Source of the DNA: a virus
Strand: one strand, 5' to 3'
UHGV virus genome: UHGV-0008758
Length of the DNA: 17,779 nt
Shown here in pieces: positions 2,740 to 11,980 of this stretch. Made by a program: the position numbers and the translations under genes. Every line of letters begins with the position of its first letter. The stretch's first letter is position 1. A model generated the notes under the pieces. That model was not told where the DNA came from, ran no database searches, and worked only from the letters and a program-made list of their open reading frames with translations.

Positions 2740-2942
2740 TGAAAGTGCGTGCGCATCAGTATGACACGGTGGACGCGCTTTGCTGGCGTCATTACGGGCG
2801 CACGCAGGGTGTCACGGAGCAGGTACTGAAGGCAAATCCGGGGCTTGCCGAATATGGCCCCTTTTTACCTCACGGGCTGCAGGTGGAGCTGCCGGACATT
2901 CCGACAACCACCACCGTGCAGACCGTCCAGCTATGGGACTGA
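2739..2942 (+). CDS. X: tail protein X
   Basis: 67-aa ORF, the same length as P2 gpX; ATGA start/stop overlap with L suggests translational coupling. Confidence 0.85.
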   Translation: MKVRAHQYDTVDALCWRHYGRTQGVTEQVLKANPGLAEYGPFLPHGLQVELPDIPTTTTVQTVQLWD

Positions 2943-2945
2943 ATT

Positions 2946-3161
2946 ATGACGCTTGAACGAATCAGCGCCTTTATCACTTACTGCATCGCCGTGCTGCTGG
3001 CATGGCTGGGCGATCTGTCGCTCAAGGATGCGTCAACGGTTGGCGGCGTACTGATTGGTGTGCTGATGCTGGCTATCAACTGGTACTACAAACACCAGTC
3101 TTTCAAATTGTTACGTGGCGGCAAAATTTCGCGGGGGGAATATGAATCCTTCAATCGTTAA
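2946..3161 (+). CDS. holin, two predicted transmembrane helices (class II, possibly pinholin-type)
   Basis: 71 aa with two hydrophobic stretches (ISAFITYCIAVLLAWL and VGGVLIGVLMLAINWYY) and a charged C-tail; immediately precedes and overlaps the endolysin gene. Confidence 0.7.
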   Translation: MTLERISAFITYCIAVLLAWLGDLSLKDASTVGGVLIGVLMLAINWYYKHQSFKLLRGGKISRGEYESFNR

Positions 3162-3651
3162 GCGCTGCCTTGTCGGGGCGGTGCTGGCTATCGCCGCCAC
3201 GCTGCCCGGTTTCCAGTCGCTTCATACCTCCGTTGAGGGGCTGAAACTGATCGCCGATTACGAGGGATGCCGCCTGCAGCCTTATCAGTGCAGCGCGGGC
3301 GTGTGGACCGACGGGATCGGCAATACGTCCGGTGTGGTGCCGGGCAAAACTATCACGGAACGGCAGGCGGCGCAGGGACTTATCACCAATGTGCTGCGCG
3401 TGGAGCGGGCGCTGGAAAAATGTGTGGTGCAGCCGATGCCGCAAAAGGTCTATGACGCGGTGGTGTCGTTTGCTTTCAACGTGGGCACCGGCAACGCCTG
3501 CAGCTCCACGCTGGTTAAGTTGCTGAACCAGCGGCGCTGGGCGGATGCCTGCCATCAGCTGCCGCGCTGGGTGTATGTCAAAGGTGTGTTTAATCAGGGG
3601 CTGGACAACCGCCGCGCGCGGGAAATGGCCTGGTGCTTAAAAGGAGCATAA
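3142..3651 (+). CDS. SAR endolysin, T4-lysozyme fold, P1 Lyz-like (Cys-containing signal-anchor-release domain)
   Basis: From ATG 3142 (G-rich SD at 3133-3138): weakly hydrophobic Ala/Gly-rich N-terminus MNPSIVKRCLVGAVLAIAATL; E41-x8-C50-x5-T56 matches the E-8-D/C-5-T lysozyme triad spacing; extra Cys at 9 and 43; GVWTDGIGNT motif. The track start at 3115 is a GTG with no RBS. Confidence 0.8.
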   Translation: MNPSIVKRCLVGAVLAIAATLPGFQSLHTSVEGLKLIADYEGCRLQPYQCSAGVWTDGIGNTSGVVPGKTITERQAAQGLITNVLRVERALEKCVVQPMPQKVYDAVVSFAFNVGTGNACSSTLVKLLNQRRWADACHQLPRWVYVKGVFNQGLDNRRAREMAWCLKGA

Positions 3652-3655
3652 CGGA

Positions 3656-4033
3656 ATGAAAAAGAAAGTCATGAGTGTTTTTTTCCAGCTGGCATGGGCT
3701 GCGCTGTTGGTTATCAGCCTGCTGTATCCGCGCAGCGGTGCGCCGGTTCTGGTTGGTGCGTCTGTCTGGGTGTCATGCTTCCTCGCCTGGCTGCTTGCTG
3801 CGCTGTGCGCTGTCGGGTGGTTCGCCGGAGATCGGGCACGCGATGAGGTCAGGGCGGCATTGCTGAAATTCAGGGCACACCCTGTAAAACCCGTGCGTAC
3901 ATGGATAATCAGGCTGCTTATTGTTCTGTGCCTGGCGTTTTCGGGATGGGTGATCACCCTGGTGTTTTACCTGCTGACGCTGGTTCTGTATCAGATTGCC
4001 CGCGCGCAGCTTCATGAGCCGATGGCGGCCTGA
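3656..4033 (+). CDS. lysA: LysA-like lysis-accessory membrane protein
   Basis: 125 aa with several hydrophobic helices; positioned between endolysin and spanins as in P2. Confidence 0.65.
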   Translation: MKKKVMSVFFQLAWAALLVISLLYPRSGAPVLVGASVWVSCFLAWLLAALCAVGWFAGDRARDEVRAALLKFRAHPVKPVRTWIIRLLIVLCLAFSGWVITLVFYLLTLVLYQIARAQLHEPMAA

Positions 4034-7322: not shown

Positions 7323-7920
7323 CCTGCTGCCGCCCGGTTCATCGCCGCTTGAGCGCCGACTGGCGCAGACCTGCAGCGGCATTTCCGATCTGCAGGTGCC
7401 GCTGCGCGACTTGTGGAACCCGGCAACGTGTCCGGTCAGCTTTCTGCCGTATCTGGCGTGGGCGTTTTCCGTCGACCGCTGGGACGAAAGCTGGACGGAG
7501 AGCGTCAAGCGCCGGGTGGTGCAGGACGCTTTCTATATCCATCAGCACAAGGGGACAACCAGCGCTGTGCGGCGCGTGGTGGAGCCGTTCGGCTTCCTGA
7601 TCCGCATCATTGAGTGGTGGCAGACCGGCGAAACGCCGGGGACGTTTCGCCTTGATATTGGCGTGCAGGAACAAGGCATCACGGAAGAAACCTATCTGGA
7701 ACTTGAGCGGCTGATCGGTGATGCCAAACCGTGCAGCCGTCACCTGATCGGCATGTCCATCAACCTGCAGACCAGTGGGCCGTATTTTATGGGGGCTGCC
7801 ACTTACACCGGCGAAGAAATCACGATCTACCCGTATATCAACGAAACCATTATTTCCGGCGGCACCGCTTATGAGGGCGGGGCAGTCCATGTTATTGACA
7901 CAATGAGAGTAAATCCATGA
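7315..7920 (+). CDS. I: baseplate protein GpI
   Basis: 201 aa, start overlapping the J 3' end; synteny J-I-H. Confidence 0.85.
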   Translation: MNSLLPPGSSPLERRLAQTCSGISDLQVPLRDLWNPATCPVSFLPYLAWAFSVDRWDESWTESVKRRVVQDAFYIHQHKGTTSAVRRVVEPFGFLIRIIEWWQTGETPGTFRLDIGVQEQGITEETYLELERLIGDAKPCSRHLIGMSINLQTSGPYFMGAATYTGEEITIYPYINETIISGGTAYEGGAVHVIDTMRVNP

Positions 7921-9116
7921 GCGCAAAATTTTACACCCTGCTGACGGAAATCGGGGCGGCGAAACTGGCAAGCGCCGCCGCGCTCGGCATTCCGTTGAAA
8001 ATTACCCAGATGGCGGTGGGCGACGGTGGTGGCGTATTACCAACGCCAAGCGCGCAACAGACCGCGTTAGTTGCTGAAAAACACCGCGCCGCGCTGAATA
8101 TGCTGTATATCGATCCGCAGAACAGCAGCCAGATTATTGCTGAGCAGGTGATCCCCGAAACGGAGGGAGGTTGGTGGATTCGTGAGGTAGGTCTGTTTGA
8201 TGAGACTGGAGCACTGATTGCTGTGGGCAACTGCCCGGAGAGCTACAAACCGCAGCTGGCGGAGGGGAGCGGGCGCACGCAGACCGTGCGCATGGTGTTG
8301 ATTACCAGCAGCACAGATAACATCACCCTGAAAATTGATCCGGCAGTGGTGCTGGCGACCCGTAAATATGTTGATGACAAGGTGCTGGAACTAAAGGTGT
8401 ATGTGGATGACCTGATGGCTAGACACCTTGCAGCTGCAGATCCTCATACGCAGTATGCACCAAAAGCCAGTCCGACATTCACTGGTACGCCAAAAGCACC
8501 AACGGCAGCGGCAGGCAATAATTCCACGCAACTTGCTAATACGGCTTTTGTGCAGGCGGCAATTGCTGCACTGGTGGCATCTTCCCCTGCAGCTCTGGAT
8601 ACACTGAATGAGCTGGCAGCAGCGCTGGGGAACGATCCAAATTTTGCCGCCACCATGACAAATGCGCTTGCCGGAAAGATGGATAAGGCAGCCAATGGGA
8701 CGGACATTGCCGACGTATCAGAATTTCTCAAAAACCTTGGTTTAGGAGATATCAGTGCTACAGGTGTTGCGACAGGTAGTATGGGCGAAACCGGATATGC
8801 CATATTTCCGATGATGATTGGCGGTGCACGTAAGACTTTTATTATGCAATGGGGATTGCTGACGCCTCTGAAATCAGGTGGCTATGTGAATATTAACCTT
8901 CCTGTCGCTTTTCCTACTATGGTGATGCAGGCATATGCAACACATGATAATGCGACACTAAACACACGCCCGACAGTATATGCAATTACTACAACAAGCC
9001 GAACCACTATCACTGCGACGGCGACGTGCTTAGATGCTGGCTCAGTGGGCGCTACAGTGACACGCAGTAGTGACGATACTGCGTGTTACGGTCGTTATTT
9101 TGCAATAGGGTGCTGA
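7917..9116 (+). CDS. H: tail fibre protein GpH: conserved N-terminal region plus the currently expressed variable C-terminal tip
   Basis: 399 aa; N-terminus MSAKFYTLLTEIGAAKLASAA... is typical of P2-type fibres; base composition becomes more AT-rich in the 3' part; an invertase crossover site lies inside at 8725-8750. Confidence 0.85.
   Translation: MSAKFYTLLTEIGAAKLASAAALGIPLKITQMAVGDGGGVLPTPSAQQTALVAEKHRAALNMLYIDPQNSSQIIAEQVIPETEGGWWIREVGLFDETGALIAVGNCPESYKPQLAEGSGRTQTVRMVLITSSTDNITLKIDPAVVLATRKYVDDKVLELKVYVDDLMARHLAAADPHTQYAPKASPTFTGTPKAPTAAAGNNSTQLANTAFVQAAIAALVASSPAALDTLNELAAALGNDPNFAATMTNALAGKMDKAANGTDIADVSEFLKNLGLGDISATGVATGSMGETGYAIFPMMIGGARKTFIMQWGLLTPLKSGGYVNINLPVAFPTMVMQAYATHDNATLNTRPTVYAITTTSRTTITATATCLDAGSVGATVTRSSDDTACYGRYFAIGC
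8725..8750. other. left crossover site of the invertible fibre segment (Hin/Gin/Cin-type 26-bp site)
   Basis: TTCTCAAAAACC TT GGTTTAGGAGAT: two 12-bp half-sites around a 2-bp core with the AAACC-NN-GGTTT centre characteristic of hix/gix/cix sites; lies in H codons for EFLKNLGLGD. Confidence 0.7.
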
Positions 9117-9117
9117 A

Positions 9118-9561
9118 ATGAATCTTAAATATTTTTCTCCATCTGAAAATGCGTTTTATGCCGGGGAGCTTAAAGAAAGCTATATCGCTGCTGGCTCATG
9201 GCCTTCTGATGCCTCGGAGGTTGATGAAAGTCTTTATCTTGAGTTTATCGATGAGCCGCCAGCAGGTAAGTATCGTGGAGTGGATGATGCAGGTATGCCC
9301 TGCTGGCTTGAAATTCCTCCACCCACCGCAGAGGAAATGGCATCGAATGCAGAGAATATGAGACAGCAGCTCATTGATGAGGCAAATGTTTATATAAACA
9401 AACGTCAGTGGCCGGGAAAAGCAGCGATAGGCCGTTTAAAGGCGGATGAACTGGAACGATATAACCTTTGGCTGGATTACCTGGACGCACTGGAACTGGT
9501 TGATACCTCCAGTGCTCCAGATATTGAATGGCCTACGCCTCCGGCAGTTCAGGCCAGATGA
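9118..9561 (+). CDS. G: tail fibre assembly chaperone GpG (Tfa)
   Basis: 147 aa directly after H; C-terminal motif LWLDYLDALELVDTSSAPDIEWPTPP is typical of Tfa proteins. Confidence 0.85.
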   Translation: MNLKYFSPSENAFYAGELKESYIAAGSWPSDASEVDESLYLEFIDEPPAGKYRGVDDAGMPCWLEIPPPTAEEMASNAENMRQQLIDEANVYINKRQWPGKAAIGRLKADELERYNLWLDYLDALELVDTSSAPDIEWPTPPAVQAR

Positions 9562-10135
9562 CATCCGGCGCGGTGCTGGTATCTGTTGCCGTCACCGCGT
9601 CAATGTAATCCAGCACGGCGTTAAGTCGGGTTGTTTCTGCCTGCGTCAACTTCCGTCCAGCCTGTAATTTCAGCTGAATCAGACTAATGGAAACCATTGC
9701 TGCATCAATCAGTGACTGGCGCTGTGCTTCTGCCGCTTCTACTGCGGCGCTATGCTGTGCCTCAGTATCCGTCACCCATTTCTCACCATCCCATTTATCA
9801 TATGGCGTTAACGGGGCGATAGTGGTTGTATTTTCAGGGTAATCACCCGGAGCTGTGATTTCTTTGGCGTCTCCCGTTTCGGTGTTATAGACGATTTCAC
9901 CGCGATGGTCTGACACATATTCCCATGATTTTAAATCCACAGAACGGCAAATTGTATAACCAGCTTTATGTGTAACTGGTGCATCTAAACAAGAATATGC
10001 CGGGATACCGACGCCAACCGCAAGATATTCAGTTGATGTGGAAATATATTCCCGCGTTTCACCATCATAGTTATAAACGGTAATATCCCCTGCCTTTGTA
10101 GCAACAAGTCCACTATTTAATATTGCTTTATCCAT
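9533..10135 (-). CDS. alternative tail fibre assembly chaperone (Tfa')
   Basis: 200 aa on the minus strand; C-terminal motif LNAVLDYIDAVTATDTSTAPDVIWPELP parallels GpG; its 3' end overlaps the G 3' end by 29 bp; its start overlaps the stop of the alternative fibre tip (TAATG). Confidence 0.8.
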   Translation of the reverse strand: MDKAILNSGLVATKAGDITVYNYDGETREYISTSTEYLAVGVGIPAYSCLDAPVTHKAGYTICRSVDLKSWEYVSDHRGEIVYNTETGDAKEITAPGDYPENTTTIAPLTPYDKWDGEKWVTDTEAQHSAAVEAAEAQRQSLIDAAMVSISLIQLKLQAGRKLTQAETTRLNAVLDYIDAVTATDTSTAPDVIWPELPEA

Positions 10136-10623
10136 TATGCTGCTCTCACGATATAGTTAAATGCAATGTTTCTTGGTCTGTTCTCTGAGGCAGTTGGCAC
10201 TACTCTTGAAGCATCAAAATTGACTAAATGAGGATTGTTTGGGGTATTTGGAATGATTGTGGTGTTACCTATCGTATTACGAAGTGCTGATTGACTTACA
10301 AAAACACCACTCGCTGTATTAAAGCTAATAGCCGCATTAGCTTCGGTTTGTCCATTACCAAATGTGCCGGTTATATTACGAATAGCATCCCCCTGAGCAG
10401 ACAGAATTTCGCGCCCCGCGTCAATACCGCGCCCGTCATCCCAACCACGAATAAACTCACCACGTAAATCAGGCAATTTATTTGTCGGATAAGCCTTTGC
10501 CAGTTCCGGGTATTCTTCAGCAGAAAAAACCGCACCGTTGCATTTCAGCCAGCCTGTTGGCGGAGTGGCGGAAGGCCACGGAACAGGGACACCAACAGGT
10601 AATGCAGAGCCTTCTCCCAAACC
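10135..10623 (-). CDS. silent alternative tail-fibre C-terminal cassette (tail-collar-type tip), with no start codon of its own
   Basis: Minus-strand frame encodes GLGEGSALPVGVPVPWPSATPPTGWLKCNGAVF...LPDLRGEFIRGWDDGRGIDAGR, the classic tail-collar motif of Mu/P1-type fibre tips; an in-frame TGA lies just upstream at 10639-10641 and no start or RBS is present; inversion would fuse it in frame to H. Confidence 0.75.
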   Translation of the reverse strand, partial: GLGEGSALPVGVPVPWPSATPPTGWLKCNGAVFSAEEYPELAKAYPTNKLPDLRGEFIRGWDDGRGIDAGREILSAQGDAIRNITGTFGNGQTEANAAISFNTASGVFVSQSALRNTIGNTTIIPNTPNNPHLVNFDASRVVPTASENRPRNIAFNYIVRAA

Positions 10624-10637
10624 AACCTTTGAAAATG
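10612..10637. other. right crossover site of the invertible segment (inner half and core conserved, outer half degenerate)
   Basis: TTCTCCCAAACC AA CCTTTGAAAATG; the inner half and core are the reverse complement of the left site's inner half and core (GGTTTGGGAGAA versus GGTTTAGGAGAT), but the outer half matches poorly. Confidence 0.55.
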
Positions 10638-10659
10638 GTCACCTATATAGGTGACCATT
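10634..10659. repeat. perfect 26-bp palindrome; candidate terminator for the minus-strand orphan gene or a protein-binding site
   Basis: AATGGTCACCTAT|ATAGGTGACCATT is an exact reverse-complement pair; starts 4 nt beyond the stop of ORF 10664-11086; on the minus strand it is followed by TTCAAAGG, a weak U-tract. Confidence 0.45.
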
Positions 10660-10663
10660 CGGG

Positions 10664-11086
10664 TTAATGCAGCGTTGTAGTTGAGCTGGACTCTGCCATT
10701 GCCACTGTCAATTCATCGCCTTCGGCTGAGATCTTAATGGTATTACTTCCTTCTGATTTAGCGCCTTTTGGTAGACCTAGCTGATCATAGATACACAAGA
10801 ATCTTGAATCATTTATAAAGGTGATTTCTGTTACAGTCCCACCTTCAACGACCTTAGAGTCTATTGATTTTATCAAATTGATATCCTGAACATTAATGTG
10901 CTTTATCGCATCCCAGTTAAGGCTGATGTCCACGTTATCCTTTTGCATCGTTATCACATGACCGGCCTTATGCTGGGTTGTGACTTTTCCATCAGGGCTC
11001 ATCGTAATCTTTTGCCCCATGTGATAAATAATTTGAGTTCCGTCTTCGAGACACTCGATTTTTGGCTCTTTAGTAAAGTCGTTCAT
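10664..11086 (-). CDS. hypothetical protein, 140 aa, AT-rich orphan (accessory/moron candidate)
   Basis: Minus-strand ORF with RBS AAGGA about 7 nt upstream of ATG; hand-counted GC about 38% versus about 60% in flanking structural genes; no TM helix or signal peptide seen; no family recognised. Confidence 0.6.
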   Translation of the reverse strand: MNDFTKEPKIECLEDGTQIIYHMGQKITMSPDGKVTTQHKAGHVITMQKDNVDISLNWDAIKHINVQDINLIKSIDSKVVEGGTVTEITFINDSRFLCIYDQLGLPKGAKSEGSNTIKISAEGDELTVAMAESSSTTTLH

Positions 11087-11291
11087 GAAAATCCTTCAAT
11101 TATCTGTTGCTGGAAGGTGCTAATCTACACGAATCCTTGGTTATGTATGTAATGAGGCTCTAGAAATCCACTTGAATATAAATAAATTTTTATGGTGTTG
11201 GCTTGTAATGCTCGCGTAGCTCTTTGTCAAAAGTGAAACTCTGATAACCTGGTTCTACTGACGAACAGAAGGATGAGCAGGAGATCGCTTT

Positions 11292-11852
11292 ATGATTATT
11301 GGGTATGCACGAGTATCAAGTAACCATCAGGACACCGAGCTTCAGATGCAGGCGCTCAGAGCTGCTGGCTGTAAGTTAATTTTTGAGGAAAAGGCTTCTG
11401 GCCGTAAGACGAATCGACCAATCTTGAAGAAAGTGGTTGAGATGCTTGAACCCGGTGACGAACTGGTCATCTGGAAGTTAGATCGTATCGGTCGCAATGT
11501 ACTGCACGCATTATTGACCTTTCAGAGCCTCGCAGAACGCAATGTTAATATTCGTTCTATTACAGATGGCGTTGACCTGAGCACTGCCAGTGGGCGCTAT
11601 AACTTCCGTAATATTCTCTCTGCGGCACAATATGAGTCTGATCTGAATAGTGAACGCACTCTGGCAGGGTTAGCGGTTGCCCGCGCTAAGGGGAGGATTG
11701 GCGGACGTAAGCCTAAGTATACTGATGAGCACTGGGATGCGTTTGAACGGGAAATTAAGTCCGGCTGCTCACATCGTGATATAGCTCTCAAATATGGGGT
11801 CGGCCTGTCGACTCTCTACAAACGTTATCCGGCTCAGCAAGAGCATCACTAA
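11292..11852 (+). CDS. serine recombinase, DNA invertase (Hin/Gin/Cin/Pin family)
   Basis: 186 aa; N-terminal [13 protein letters not shown] with the catalytic Ser in YARVSS; [11 protein letters not shown]; C-terminal HTH region GRIGGRKPK...[12 protein letters not shown]; AGGAG RBS. Confidence 0.9.
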
Positions 11853-11950
11853 ACACTCTTTGCGTTCATTTTTGCACTGTGCAGAATGTGTCTTTTTGGC
11901 ACCTTCTGGCAGTGCAAAATTTATCGCGTTTTGGTGCAAAAAAATCGCCG

Positions 11951-11980
11951 CGCTACAATCTGCGGGGATTTTTTTTGCCC
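11951..11980 (+). terminator. possible intrinsic terminator after the invertase gene (weak GC dyad plus T8 tract)
   Basis: CCGC...GCGG short stem followed by GGATTTTTTTT at 11967-11976; the stem is weak, so confidence is low. Confidence 0.3.

Follow-up and report, generated by a model that had tools for sequence, protein, structure and literature searches.

The 17,779-nucleotide stretch of the UHGV virus genome UHGV-0008758 analysed here (the window) covers the late region of a P2-like prophage, in which a serine DNA invertase gene follows a pair of opposed tail-fibre cassettes. The region is probably best explained as a Din-family tail-fibre switch of the P2-like type with a naturally asymmetric right crossover site, a moron (accessory block) inserted 5 bp outside the core of that site, a palindrome that is the hairpin of the moron, and a site that probably remains active. 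In this explanation, positions 10612–10637 would be the invertase-proximal crossover site of a switch whose invertase belongs to the phi80 PinL-like subclade. The right site of the subclade is asymmetric by nature, combining a canonical inner half and an AA core with a non-coding outer arm that keeps only CCTTT. An AT-rich moron of 572 bp, consisting of a minus-strand gene for 140 residues and its upstream region, would have entered 5 bp outside the core at the cost of 13 bp. The palindrome would act as the intrinsic terminator and 3′-end stabiliser of the moron through a hairpin followed by UUUU, and this terminator would keep lysogen-time transcription of the moron out of the promoter-less silent fibre cassette that lies directly downstream on the same strand. 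Within this explanation, the anatomy, the limits of the insertion, the CCTTT arm across the clade, flipping in a relative and the variety of core-exact junctions are observed, whereas terminator activity, expression of the moron and flipping at the site of the window itself are inferred.

Right crossover site and inserted block

The elements on which the argument depends are the following.

8725–8750, plus strand: left crossover site found by the half-site scan, both halves canonical, inside the tail-fibre gene H
10612–10637, plus strand: right crossover site TTCTCCCAAACC/AA/CCTTTGAAAATG found by the half-site scan; only the outer-arm bases 10626–10630 are common to relatives
10631–11202, no strand assigned: accessory block (moron) of 572 bp, delimited by comparison of locus L048 with locus L010 and the window; right boundary uncertain by ~15 bp
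10634–10659, no strand assigned: perfect 26-bp palindrome AATGGTCACCTAT/ATAGGTGACCATT (13+13, no spacer), interpreted as a 3′ hairpin belonging to the orphan gene
10664–11086, minus strand: orphan gene of 140 residues, AT-rich, between the right site and the invertase gene
11203–11291, plus strand: conserved invertase leader, common to relatives without the orphan gene
11292–11852, plus strand: PinL-like serine DNA invertase of 186 residues (Pfam Resolvase, 2.8e-37, and HTH_7)

A Din-family site is modelled as two 12-bp inverted half-sites (approximately TTATCNNAAACC) around a 2-bp core, 26 bp in total, and a half-site scan of the whole window detects two such sites only. The left site, TTCTCAAAAACC TT GGTTTAGGAGAT, has halves that score 10/10 and 9/10. 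The right site is composed of the inner half TTCTCCCAAACC (10612–10623), the core AA (10624–10625) and the outer half CCTTTGAAAATG (10626–10637). Its inner half scores 10/10; it codes for GLGE, with which the silent fibre C-terminus begins, and is canonical for that reason. The outer half, for which the canonical arm is GGTTTAGGAGAA, scores 5/10 in the relaxed scan and 4/10 against the strict GGTTTNNGATAA. The original prediction, made from the letters of the window, had described a conserved inner half and core, a degenerate outer half, a perfect dyad and an AT-rich gene beyond it, and this description is correct in every detail.

The boundaries of the insertion were resolved by comparison with the closest relatives that lack the orphan gene, which are three plasmid-borne copies (L048, L004 and L049) with 96–97.5% identity in the invertase region. 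The right site of these copies reads ...AA CCTTTTGTGGAT and is followed by tgagatttttaatgtcggcgaagctcttcgtcaaaag and then by the invertase. Locus L010 from Citrobacter murliniae, which carries the orphan gene, has an invertase of 100% identity and shares its inner arrangement with L048 (GTTCGAAACG AA). Between L048 and L010, homology stops directly after GTTCGAAACG AA CCTTT and restarts at the equivalent of window position 11203. The 572 bp at 10631–11202 occupy the place of 13 bp, TGTGGATTGAGAT, which include the distal 7 bp of the outer arm. The distal seven arm bases GAAAATG, the palindrome, the orphan gene and the upstream region of the orphan gene form a single inserted block, and by this comparison the distal 7 bp of the present outer arm are demonstrably foreign in origin. 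The proposal that the accessory module starts inside the recombination site and replaces its outer arm is thereby borne out for the distal 7 bp, with the proximal CCTTT being kept. In agreement with this, the outer half CCTTTGAAAATG never occurs without the palindrome and the orphan gene in the 20 loci (19 distinct) that were retrieved, and the refuting case named in the original prediction, relatives that show this outer half without the adjacent module, did not turn up among them. The orphan-less state is ancestral, given that both Morganella psychrotolerans and a metagenome-assembled genome have arms of the CCTTTTGTG type as well.

The block shows two features of a moron, as it sits between genes that are adjacent in relatives and differs from its flanks in base composition. 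G+C content is 0.35–0.40 over 10700–11300 versus 0.47–0.62 in the neighbouring phage genes. Just upstream of the leader, anchored identity is significant only over 11201–11218 (p = 0.002). A MAFFT alignment had hinted at a ghost of the ancestral arm at 11184–11197 (AA ATTTTTATGGTG versus AA CCTTTTGTGGAT), a loose likeness at the right edge of the block that could represent a decayed duplicate, and this candidate was rejected as evidence at an identity of 8/18 (p = 0.19). The 8-mer TGAAAATG (window 10629–10637) recurs with a 2-bp offset in the right-site outer arm AA CGTTTATGAAAATG of P2-like prophages that have a 197-residue invertase (L038), a sharing that reflects either common ancestry of the arm or coincidence.

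The poor match of the outer half to a hix/gix-type half-site had been attributed to the insertion, and the relatives of the invertase contradict this. The invertase shares ~72% identity with phi80 PinL and with its counterparts in mEp237, HK225 and Omnitron; across PinL, Cin and Gin the identity ranges from 50 to 73%. Orphan-less genomic relatives with invertases of 63–88% identity are found in Morganella, Kluyvera, Erwinia, Trabulsiella, Shimwellia and others. Nearly all of them read ...AAACC AA CCTTT and continue into unconserved bases. The outer arm is CCTTTCAAATAT in phi80, mEp237 and SKA5, CCTTTTTTATAA in Omnitron and Trabulsiella, CCTTTTGTGAAC in Morganella psychrotolerans, CCTTTTAAAGTA in M. 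morganii, CCTTTAGTGGGC in Kluyvera, CCTTTCATGGAG in Erwinia and CCTTTTGTAGAA in a metagenome-assembled genome; CCTTTTTAAAAC is a further example of a whole arm from the clade, and the plasmid copies carry CCTTTTGTGGAT. The last of these, which represents the arm before insertion, scores 4/10 against the hix/gix consensus, as does the present arm. Judged by these relatives, it is normal in the PinL-like invertase group for the core to be flanked by CC rather than GG and for the distal arm to be poor. The hix/gix-type consensus is the wrong yardstick for PinL-like right sites, whose outer arm keeps CCTTT only.

The distance between site and invertase has changed with the insertion. In more than 12 orphan-less relatives, the right site precedes the invertase start by 54–95 nt that contain no gene, in contrast to 654 nt in the window, because a gene has been inserted between the two. 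A G-N13-C scan for a Fis enhancer yields a conserved candidate at nucleotides 20–34 of the invertase gene, although the same scan fails to recover the annotated P7 cin enhancer as a pair. In phi80 (L005) and mEp237 (L007), accessory genes (the dinI-like dinL and pseudogene fragments; locus coordinates 2900–3941) lie inside the former invertible segment, where a Collar-domain pseudogene fragment still reaches an intact-looking right site; there the cargo replaced cassettes and was not placed outside the site.

Palindrome and orphan gene

The palindrome overlaps the outer half-site by 4 bp and begins 4 nt past the orphan stop codon. It is unique in the window even when 3 mismatches are allowed and was recovered in 0/200 shuffles. 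On the orphan strand, the RNA hairpin has a free energy of −17.8 kcal/mol (z = −5.5) with a stem of 11–12 bp and a loop of 4 nt. The hairpin followed by UUUUCAAAGG that had been described on the minus strand is present as stated, and once three weak basal pairs open, this tail provides 4 U. The plus-strand hairpin is equally good, and its tail, UUCGGGUU, is poorer. The original prediction had regarded a perfect 26-bp dyad as longer than a terminator needs. An 11-bp stem with a self-complementary UAUA loop suffices to produce such a dyad, and its length is not unusual in itself.

The dyad had been proposed to be either a terminator or an operator. A terminator is plausible for a 3′ hairpin located 4 nt past the stop codon, and the operator half of the proposal finds little room at a gene 3′ end with no other copies. 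A search for further copies, which had been suggested as a check, found the palindrome only alongside the orphan gene in IMG/VR and in 5,426 E. coli genomes. No such dyad is located downstream of the distant orphan homologues. An operator or a dispersed element is disfavoured because the dyad lies at a gene 3′ end, far from gene starts, and is absent near these homologues. The palindrome is most likely the 3′ terminator/stabiliser of the moron or an insulator hairpin, a view that is held with moderate confidence from its position and predicted fold.

A related alternative is that the palindrome is a protein-binding dyad, recognised by the orphan protein or by a host or phage regulator, that gates access of the invertase to the site or serves as an operator. 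The perfect symmetry of the 26 bp, their overlap with the crossover site and their invariance across all loci would each suit a binding site. Its location at the orphan 3′ end, in contrast, is ~430 bp from the orphan upstream region and 630 bp from the invertase start, the orphan protein has no recognisable DNA-binding domain, and the stem and loop described above already yield a perfect dyad. With the genome searches and the distant homologues also pointing away from it, a binding dyad is very improbable.

A near-identical but imperfect hairpin, AATGGTCACCT-ATAAA-AGGTGACCAT, is observed in E. coli 90-9281 (NZ_CP024243.1; L063, 701–727) with a BLAST E value of 2, which may be due to chance. 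It occupies a 33-nt gap between convergent genes for a hypothetical protein and an S8 peptidase in ~12 E. coli genomes, a position typical of a bidirectional terminator.

The orphan protein has no Pfam, PHROG, PADLOC or meaningful NCBIfam match and corresponds to one 99% cluster among 5.8 billion proteins. The gene is present in ~1750 assembly blocks and adjoins, or lies just upstream of, this invertase in every place read; its hosts are mostly P2-like prophages, and it is sometimes found at the end of Mu-like-tail prophages (e.g. L028). An exhaustive HMMER search identified three distant homologues with 33–42% identity. Two of them adjoin gp25/TssE-like baseplate genes (homologue loci L060, Logan ERR11525562; L062, ERZ27287608; and L061), and a fragment downstream in L060 resembles the N-terminus of TssA/ImpA of the type VI secretion system by eye, although Pfam does not confirm it. 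These neighbourhoods hint that the small protein family of the orphan is linked to contractile injection systems. A 538-residue match (P0005) was rejected as a homologue since it is a spurious hit to a eukaryotic immunoglobulin-repeat protein. Sequence matches in the PDB were restricted to designed 'Pizza' propellers (E ~1e-3, no passing stretch) and were judged meaningless. An AlphaFold prediction made without an alignment has a mean predicted local distance difference test score of 42.7, and the model is unusable. A search of Rfam over 10300–11400 returned a sub-threshold snoRNA match only.

Probable strand exchange at the AA core

The original prediction had named a frozen fibre, with inversion reduced or abolished, as a possible consequence of the altered arm, besides altered site usage. 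Two kinds of comparison speak against this expectation, namely flip isomers in relatives with equally poor arms and the diversity of junctions in prophages that carry the orphan gene.

Loci L033 and L034 are SKA5-type prophages with a Mu-like tail module, a 187-residue invertase that is 68% identical to that of the window, and the very invertible segment of the window. Outside this segment the two loci align collinearly at 97–99.4% identity, and the 1889-bp segment itself is inverted at 99.8% identity. The left junctions read CTCTCGAAAACC TT GGTTTAGGAGAT versus ...GGTTTGGGAGAA, and the right junctions read TTCTCCCAAACC versus ATCTCCTAAACC, each followed by AA CCTTTCAAATAT, which maps the exchange at or next to the core. 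A CCTTT-type right site has therefore flipped in nature. Loci L038 and L040, which encode a 197-residue invertase and have the right site TTCTCCCAAACC AA CGTTTATGAAAA, form a second flip-isomer pair. Both pairs consist of different isolates, and their segments are inverted at 99.6–99.8% identity. For prophages that carry the orphan gene, no isomer emerged from pattern scans of IMG/VR and metagenomes, from look-ups of the exact proteins of the two assembly genes or from comparing every locus with every other.

In all 20 orphan-bearing loci (19 distinct), the core, the outer arm CCTTTGAAAATG, the palindrome, the orphan gene and the invertase are 99.6–100% identical. AA, CCTTTGAAAATG and the palindrome are invariant, and the inner side changes exactly at the core. 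At least 10 inner halves are joined to this module, including TTCTCCCAAACC, TTCTCCCAGACC, GTCTCCCAAACC, CTCTCCCAAACC, CTCTTTTAAACC, TTCTCCCAATTG, CAGTTCGAAACG, ATCCTGCATAGG, TAGCAGAATAGG and GAGTAGGAAATG. Four of the junctions (L010, L028, L041 and L042) are located on one Mu-like-tail backbone, whose baseplate region is 98–99.8% identical. Two of the inner arrangements also occur without the orphan gene, one in L048 and the other in L004 together with L049. The simplest reading of this pattern would be repeated strand exchange at the core after acquisition of the block, because homologous recombination cannot join unrelated sequences at a 2-bp core.

The switch of the window is itself structurally intact, with a whole invertase open reading frame and both fibre cassettes whole. 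The left core TT is complementary to the right core, and the left site is in inverted orientation inside the fibre gene. Core-to-core inversion in silico joins H in frame to the silent Collar C-terminus to give a fibre of 436 residues, with its own 200-residue assembly gene directly after it, so that in-frame C-termini are swapped. After the flip, the left junction is predicted to read ...TTTCTCAAAAACCTTGGTTTGGGAGAAGGCTCTGC... and the right one ...GCACTGATATCTCCTAAACCAACCTTTGAAAATGGTCACC...; the isolate lysogens that have this exact site (E. coli E41, MB51 and ET734 and Citrobacter murliniae 24249) carry cassettes other than those of the window. The site probably still supports inversion, because the clade-conserved part of the outer arm and the rest of the switch are intact.

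Several observations weigh against the reading of an active, naturally asymmetric site flanked by a moron and its terminator hairpin. The all-against-all comparison detected no flip isomer at ≥97% identity among 16 orphan-bearing loci, and the exact combination of segment and module seen in the window occurs once only in the collections searched. Several of the loci with the orphan gene contain just one cassette, or an inner half that is degenerate, and could represent a switch in decay in that lineage. With 4 U in its tail versus a rule of ≥5 T in 8, the hairpin is not called by the terminator scan, and the palindrome is invariant across loci, so covariation can offer no evidence. A consensus scan found no sigma-70 promoter for the orphan gene on the minus strand of 11087–11202, and its sole minus-strand match, 9/12 at 11319–11292, is located inside the invertase start.

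The first of these observations would also suit a different history, in which replacement of the distal arm crippled binding of the second invertase subunit and the switch was frozen or strongly slowed, leaving the fibre fixed. The distal 7 bp do differ from those of the nearest orphan-less relatives, and many orphan-bearing loci show single-cassette or degenerate arrangements. The distal arm, in contrast, is unconserved throughout the clade, and the ancestral arm was as far from the consensus as the present one. An arm that is equally poor flips in nature (L033/L034), the invertase and both cassettes are intact, and core-exact junction diversity beside a 99.6–100% identical module implies strand exchange after the insertion. 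A frozen switch is unlikely on this balance, if still credible.

The same junctions bear on how the block arrived. It may have been captured when the invertase exchanged strands between the AA core and that of a foreign right-type site with the arm CCTTTGAAAATG, in which case the palindrome would be a neighbour of the donor site. The shared CCTTT leaves the actual left junction free to fall at any point between the core and +5. Junctions exactly at the core are frequent in the lineage, and the 8-mer noted above links the present arm to that of the 197-residue invertase prophages. Against capture, no donor context was found and the orphan gene is known only in its present arrangement, while no crossover sites accompany its distant homologues, which reside elsewhere. 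Near 11190–11202, a further junction that is not site-specific would still be needed. Capture at the core is accordingly rated as having a very slim chance, and insertion of the moron 5 bp outside the core is preferred.

A broader proposal is that the AA core serves as a seam at which fibre cassettes and cargo are swapped between unrelated phages, the orphan block having itself entered by invertase-catalysed exchange. This is quite doubtful as a whole. If true, the core-exact junctions in P2-like and Mu-like-tail prophages would be a record of repeated recombinase-mediated exchange and would provide a concrete mechanism for the turnover of the P2 Z/fun hotspot. Iida and Hiestand-Nauer reportedly described recombination of Cin at quasi-sites (cixQ) in 1987, with secondary sites selected by the core dinucleotide (as cited in PMC4134206). 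The junctions described here resemble that situation in that an invariant core and outer arm are joined to unrelated, non-canonical inner sequences, as secondary-site exchange would give. They differ in that they come from comparison of junctions alone, and cassettes could also be imported by other routes.

Single-cassette arrangements are observed in L010, L028, L041 and L042 and in the orphan-less L004, L048 and L049. The assembly-gene stop is 1–7 bp from the AA core in L028, L041, L042 and L004/L049 (e.g. ...ATAGG AA CCTTT) and ~120 bp from it in L010 and L048. These loci may be products of secondary-site exchange or of deletion. Locus L046 (PPYF01017283.1, 3938–5140) has the backbone of the window at 99.9–100% identity, and its H gene breaks off at the equivalent of window position 8448. 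The broken H is fused to 180 bp left over from another silent cassette, immediately ahead of the right site, and genes upstream are also rearranged; L046 is either a decayed prophage or a misassembly.

Fibre cassettes and related systems

The gene order in the window is V, W, J, I, H, an assembly gene, two opposed silent genes, the 140-residue reading frame, the serine invertase, the sheath gene and the tube gene. The gene table was taken from L031, a contig from a Hadza gut metagenome whose invertible segment is identical to that of the window. The fibre genes and the remaining element are listed below.

7917–9116, plus strand: tail-fibre gene H, currently expressed form, 399 residues (Pfam Phage_tail_fib and Gp53-like_C; P2-like gene order)
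9118–9561, plus strand: assembly gene of the expressed cassette, 147 residues (Pfam Caudo_TAP)
9533–10135, minus strand: assembly gene of the silent cassette, 200 residues (Pfam Caudo_TAP)
10135–10620, minus strand: silent alternative fibre C-terminus with a Collar domain (Pfam Collar; in-silico inversion)
11948–11975, plus strand: terminator-like hairpin with a T-run, after the invertase and before the sheath gene (terminator scan)

The H protein combines a constant N-terminal part with a Gp53-like C-terminal cassette. The arrangement resembles the Din-family fibre switches (Gin/gix of Mu, Cin/cix of P1 and P7, Pin/pix of e14, Min of p15B and PinL of phi80) in its adjoining serine invertase, its ~1.9-kb segment with two opposed cassettes of C-terminus and assembly gene, its 26-bp sites with a 2-bp core, the position of one site inside the fibre gene and the in-frame alternative fibre that inversion would give. 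It differs from Cin and Gin in that the invertase is only ~52% identical to theirs and in that CC, not GG, adjoins the core of the right site.

Asymmetric sites of this kind have precedents. The Salmonella hixR site is a naturally asymmetric invertase site. The 3′ site of prophage Phi2 in E. coli EC958, GAGAGATAAACG TT GGTTTGGGGGAA, is an active inversion site with a degenerate outer half (PMC4134206, Table 3). Like the right site of the window, it has one half-site far from the consensus; such a half-site is in most cases the outer, non-coding one. The Phi2 site nevertheless recombines, as do the sites of L033/L034 (CCTTTCAAATAT) and L038/L040 (CGTTTATGAAAA). The window differs from the Phi2 site in the foreign origin of its poor distal 7 bp, and activity at its site is predicted from sequence.

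The region between the fibre genes and the sheath gene FI of P2 is known as the Z/fun hotspot, which holds variable cargo and often invertases (bioRxiv 10.1101/2024.10.15.618418; PMC9122126). According to a recent survey, the recombination processes behind the turnover of such hotspots are still to be elucidated (PMC13586616). The orphan gene is positioned in agreement with this hotspot, between the fibre and assembly genes and the sheath gene of a P2-like phage. As expected for a moron of the Z/fun region, it is a single AT-rich gene between genes that are adjacent in relatives, is opposed to the late operon and ends in a hairpin. It departs from the usual cargo by having no match to a known defence family, by an insertion point inside a recombination site and not in a plain intergenic spacer, and by its occurrence as a pair with the invertase on Mu-like-tail prophages as well (L028).

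The finding is largely ordinary, being a standard switch of the PinL subclade of the Din family combined with a moron in the P2 Z/fun hotspot, and its practical significance is modest. Its interest is that cargo insertion inside a recombination site at the P2 tail-fibre/Z-fun hotspot is resolved here to the base pair, and that the orphan and the invertase travel as a pair through the ~1750 assembly blocks, joined to the various inner sequences always at the 2-bp core. Such pairs constitute a natural test set for the length of outer arm that a Din invertase needs and for invertase-driven exchange of cassettes between phages.

The window segment at 8739–10623 (~1.9 kb), with identical 147- and 200-residue assembly proteins, is found on at least four phage backbones (loci L032–L040 and L051–L059), namely P2-like, Mu-like tail, a type with a Phage_Wedge1 baseplate and a P2-like variant without an adjacent invertase. 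It adjoins four different invertases of 186, 187, 197 and 182 residues. To judge from this distribution, the invertible segment behaves as a mobile cassette.

The hairpin at 11948–11975, CCGCGCTACAATCTGCGG followed by GGATTTTTTT, would close the transcription unit of the invertase. Near-identical copies of the invertase occur on plasmids together with tail-fibre or baseplate remnants in L004 (pMCR10_2641_2), L048 (pRHBSTW-00119_2) and L049 (OW968028 P2). The carriers are conjugative plasmids (IncFII and IncL/M) from Citrobacter and Enterobacter, plus one E. coli plasmid (L004, with IS26 adjoining), and fragments of the phage switch are thus spread by plasmids.

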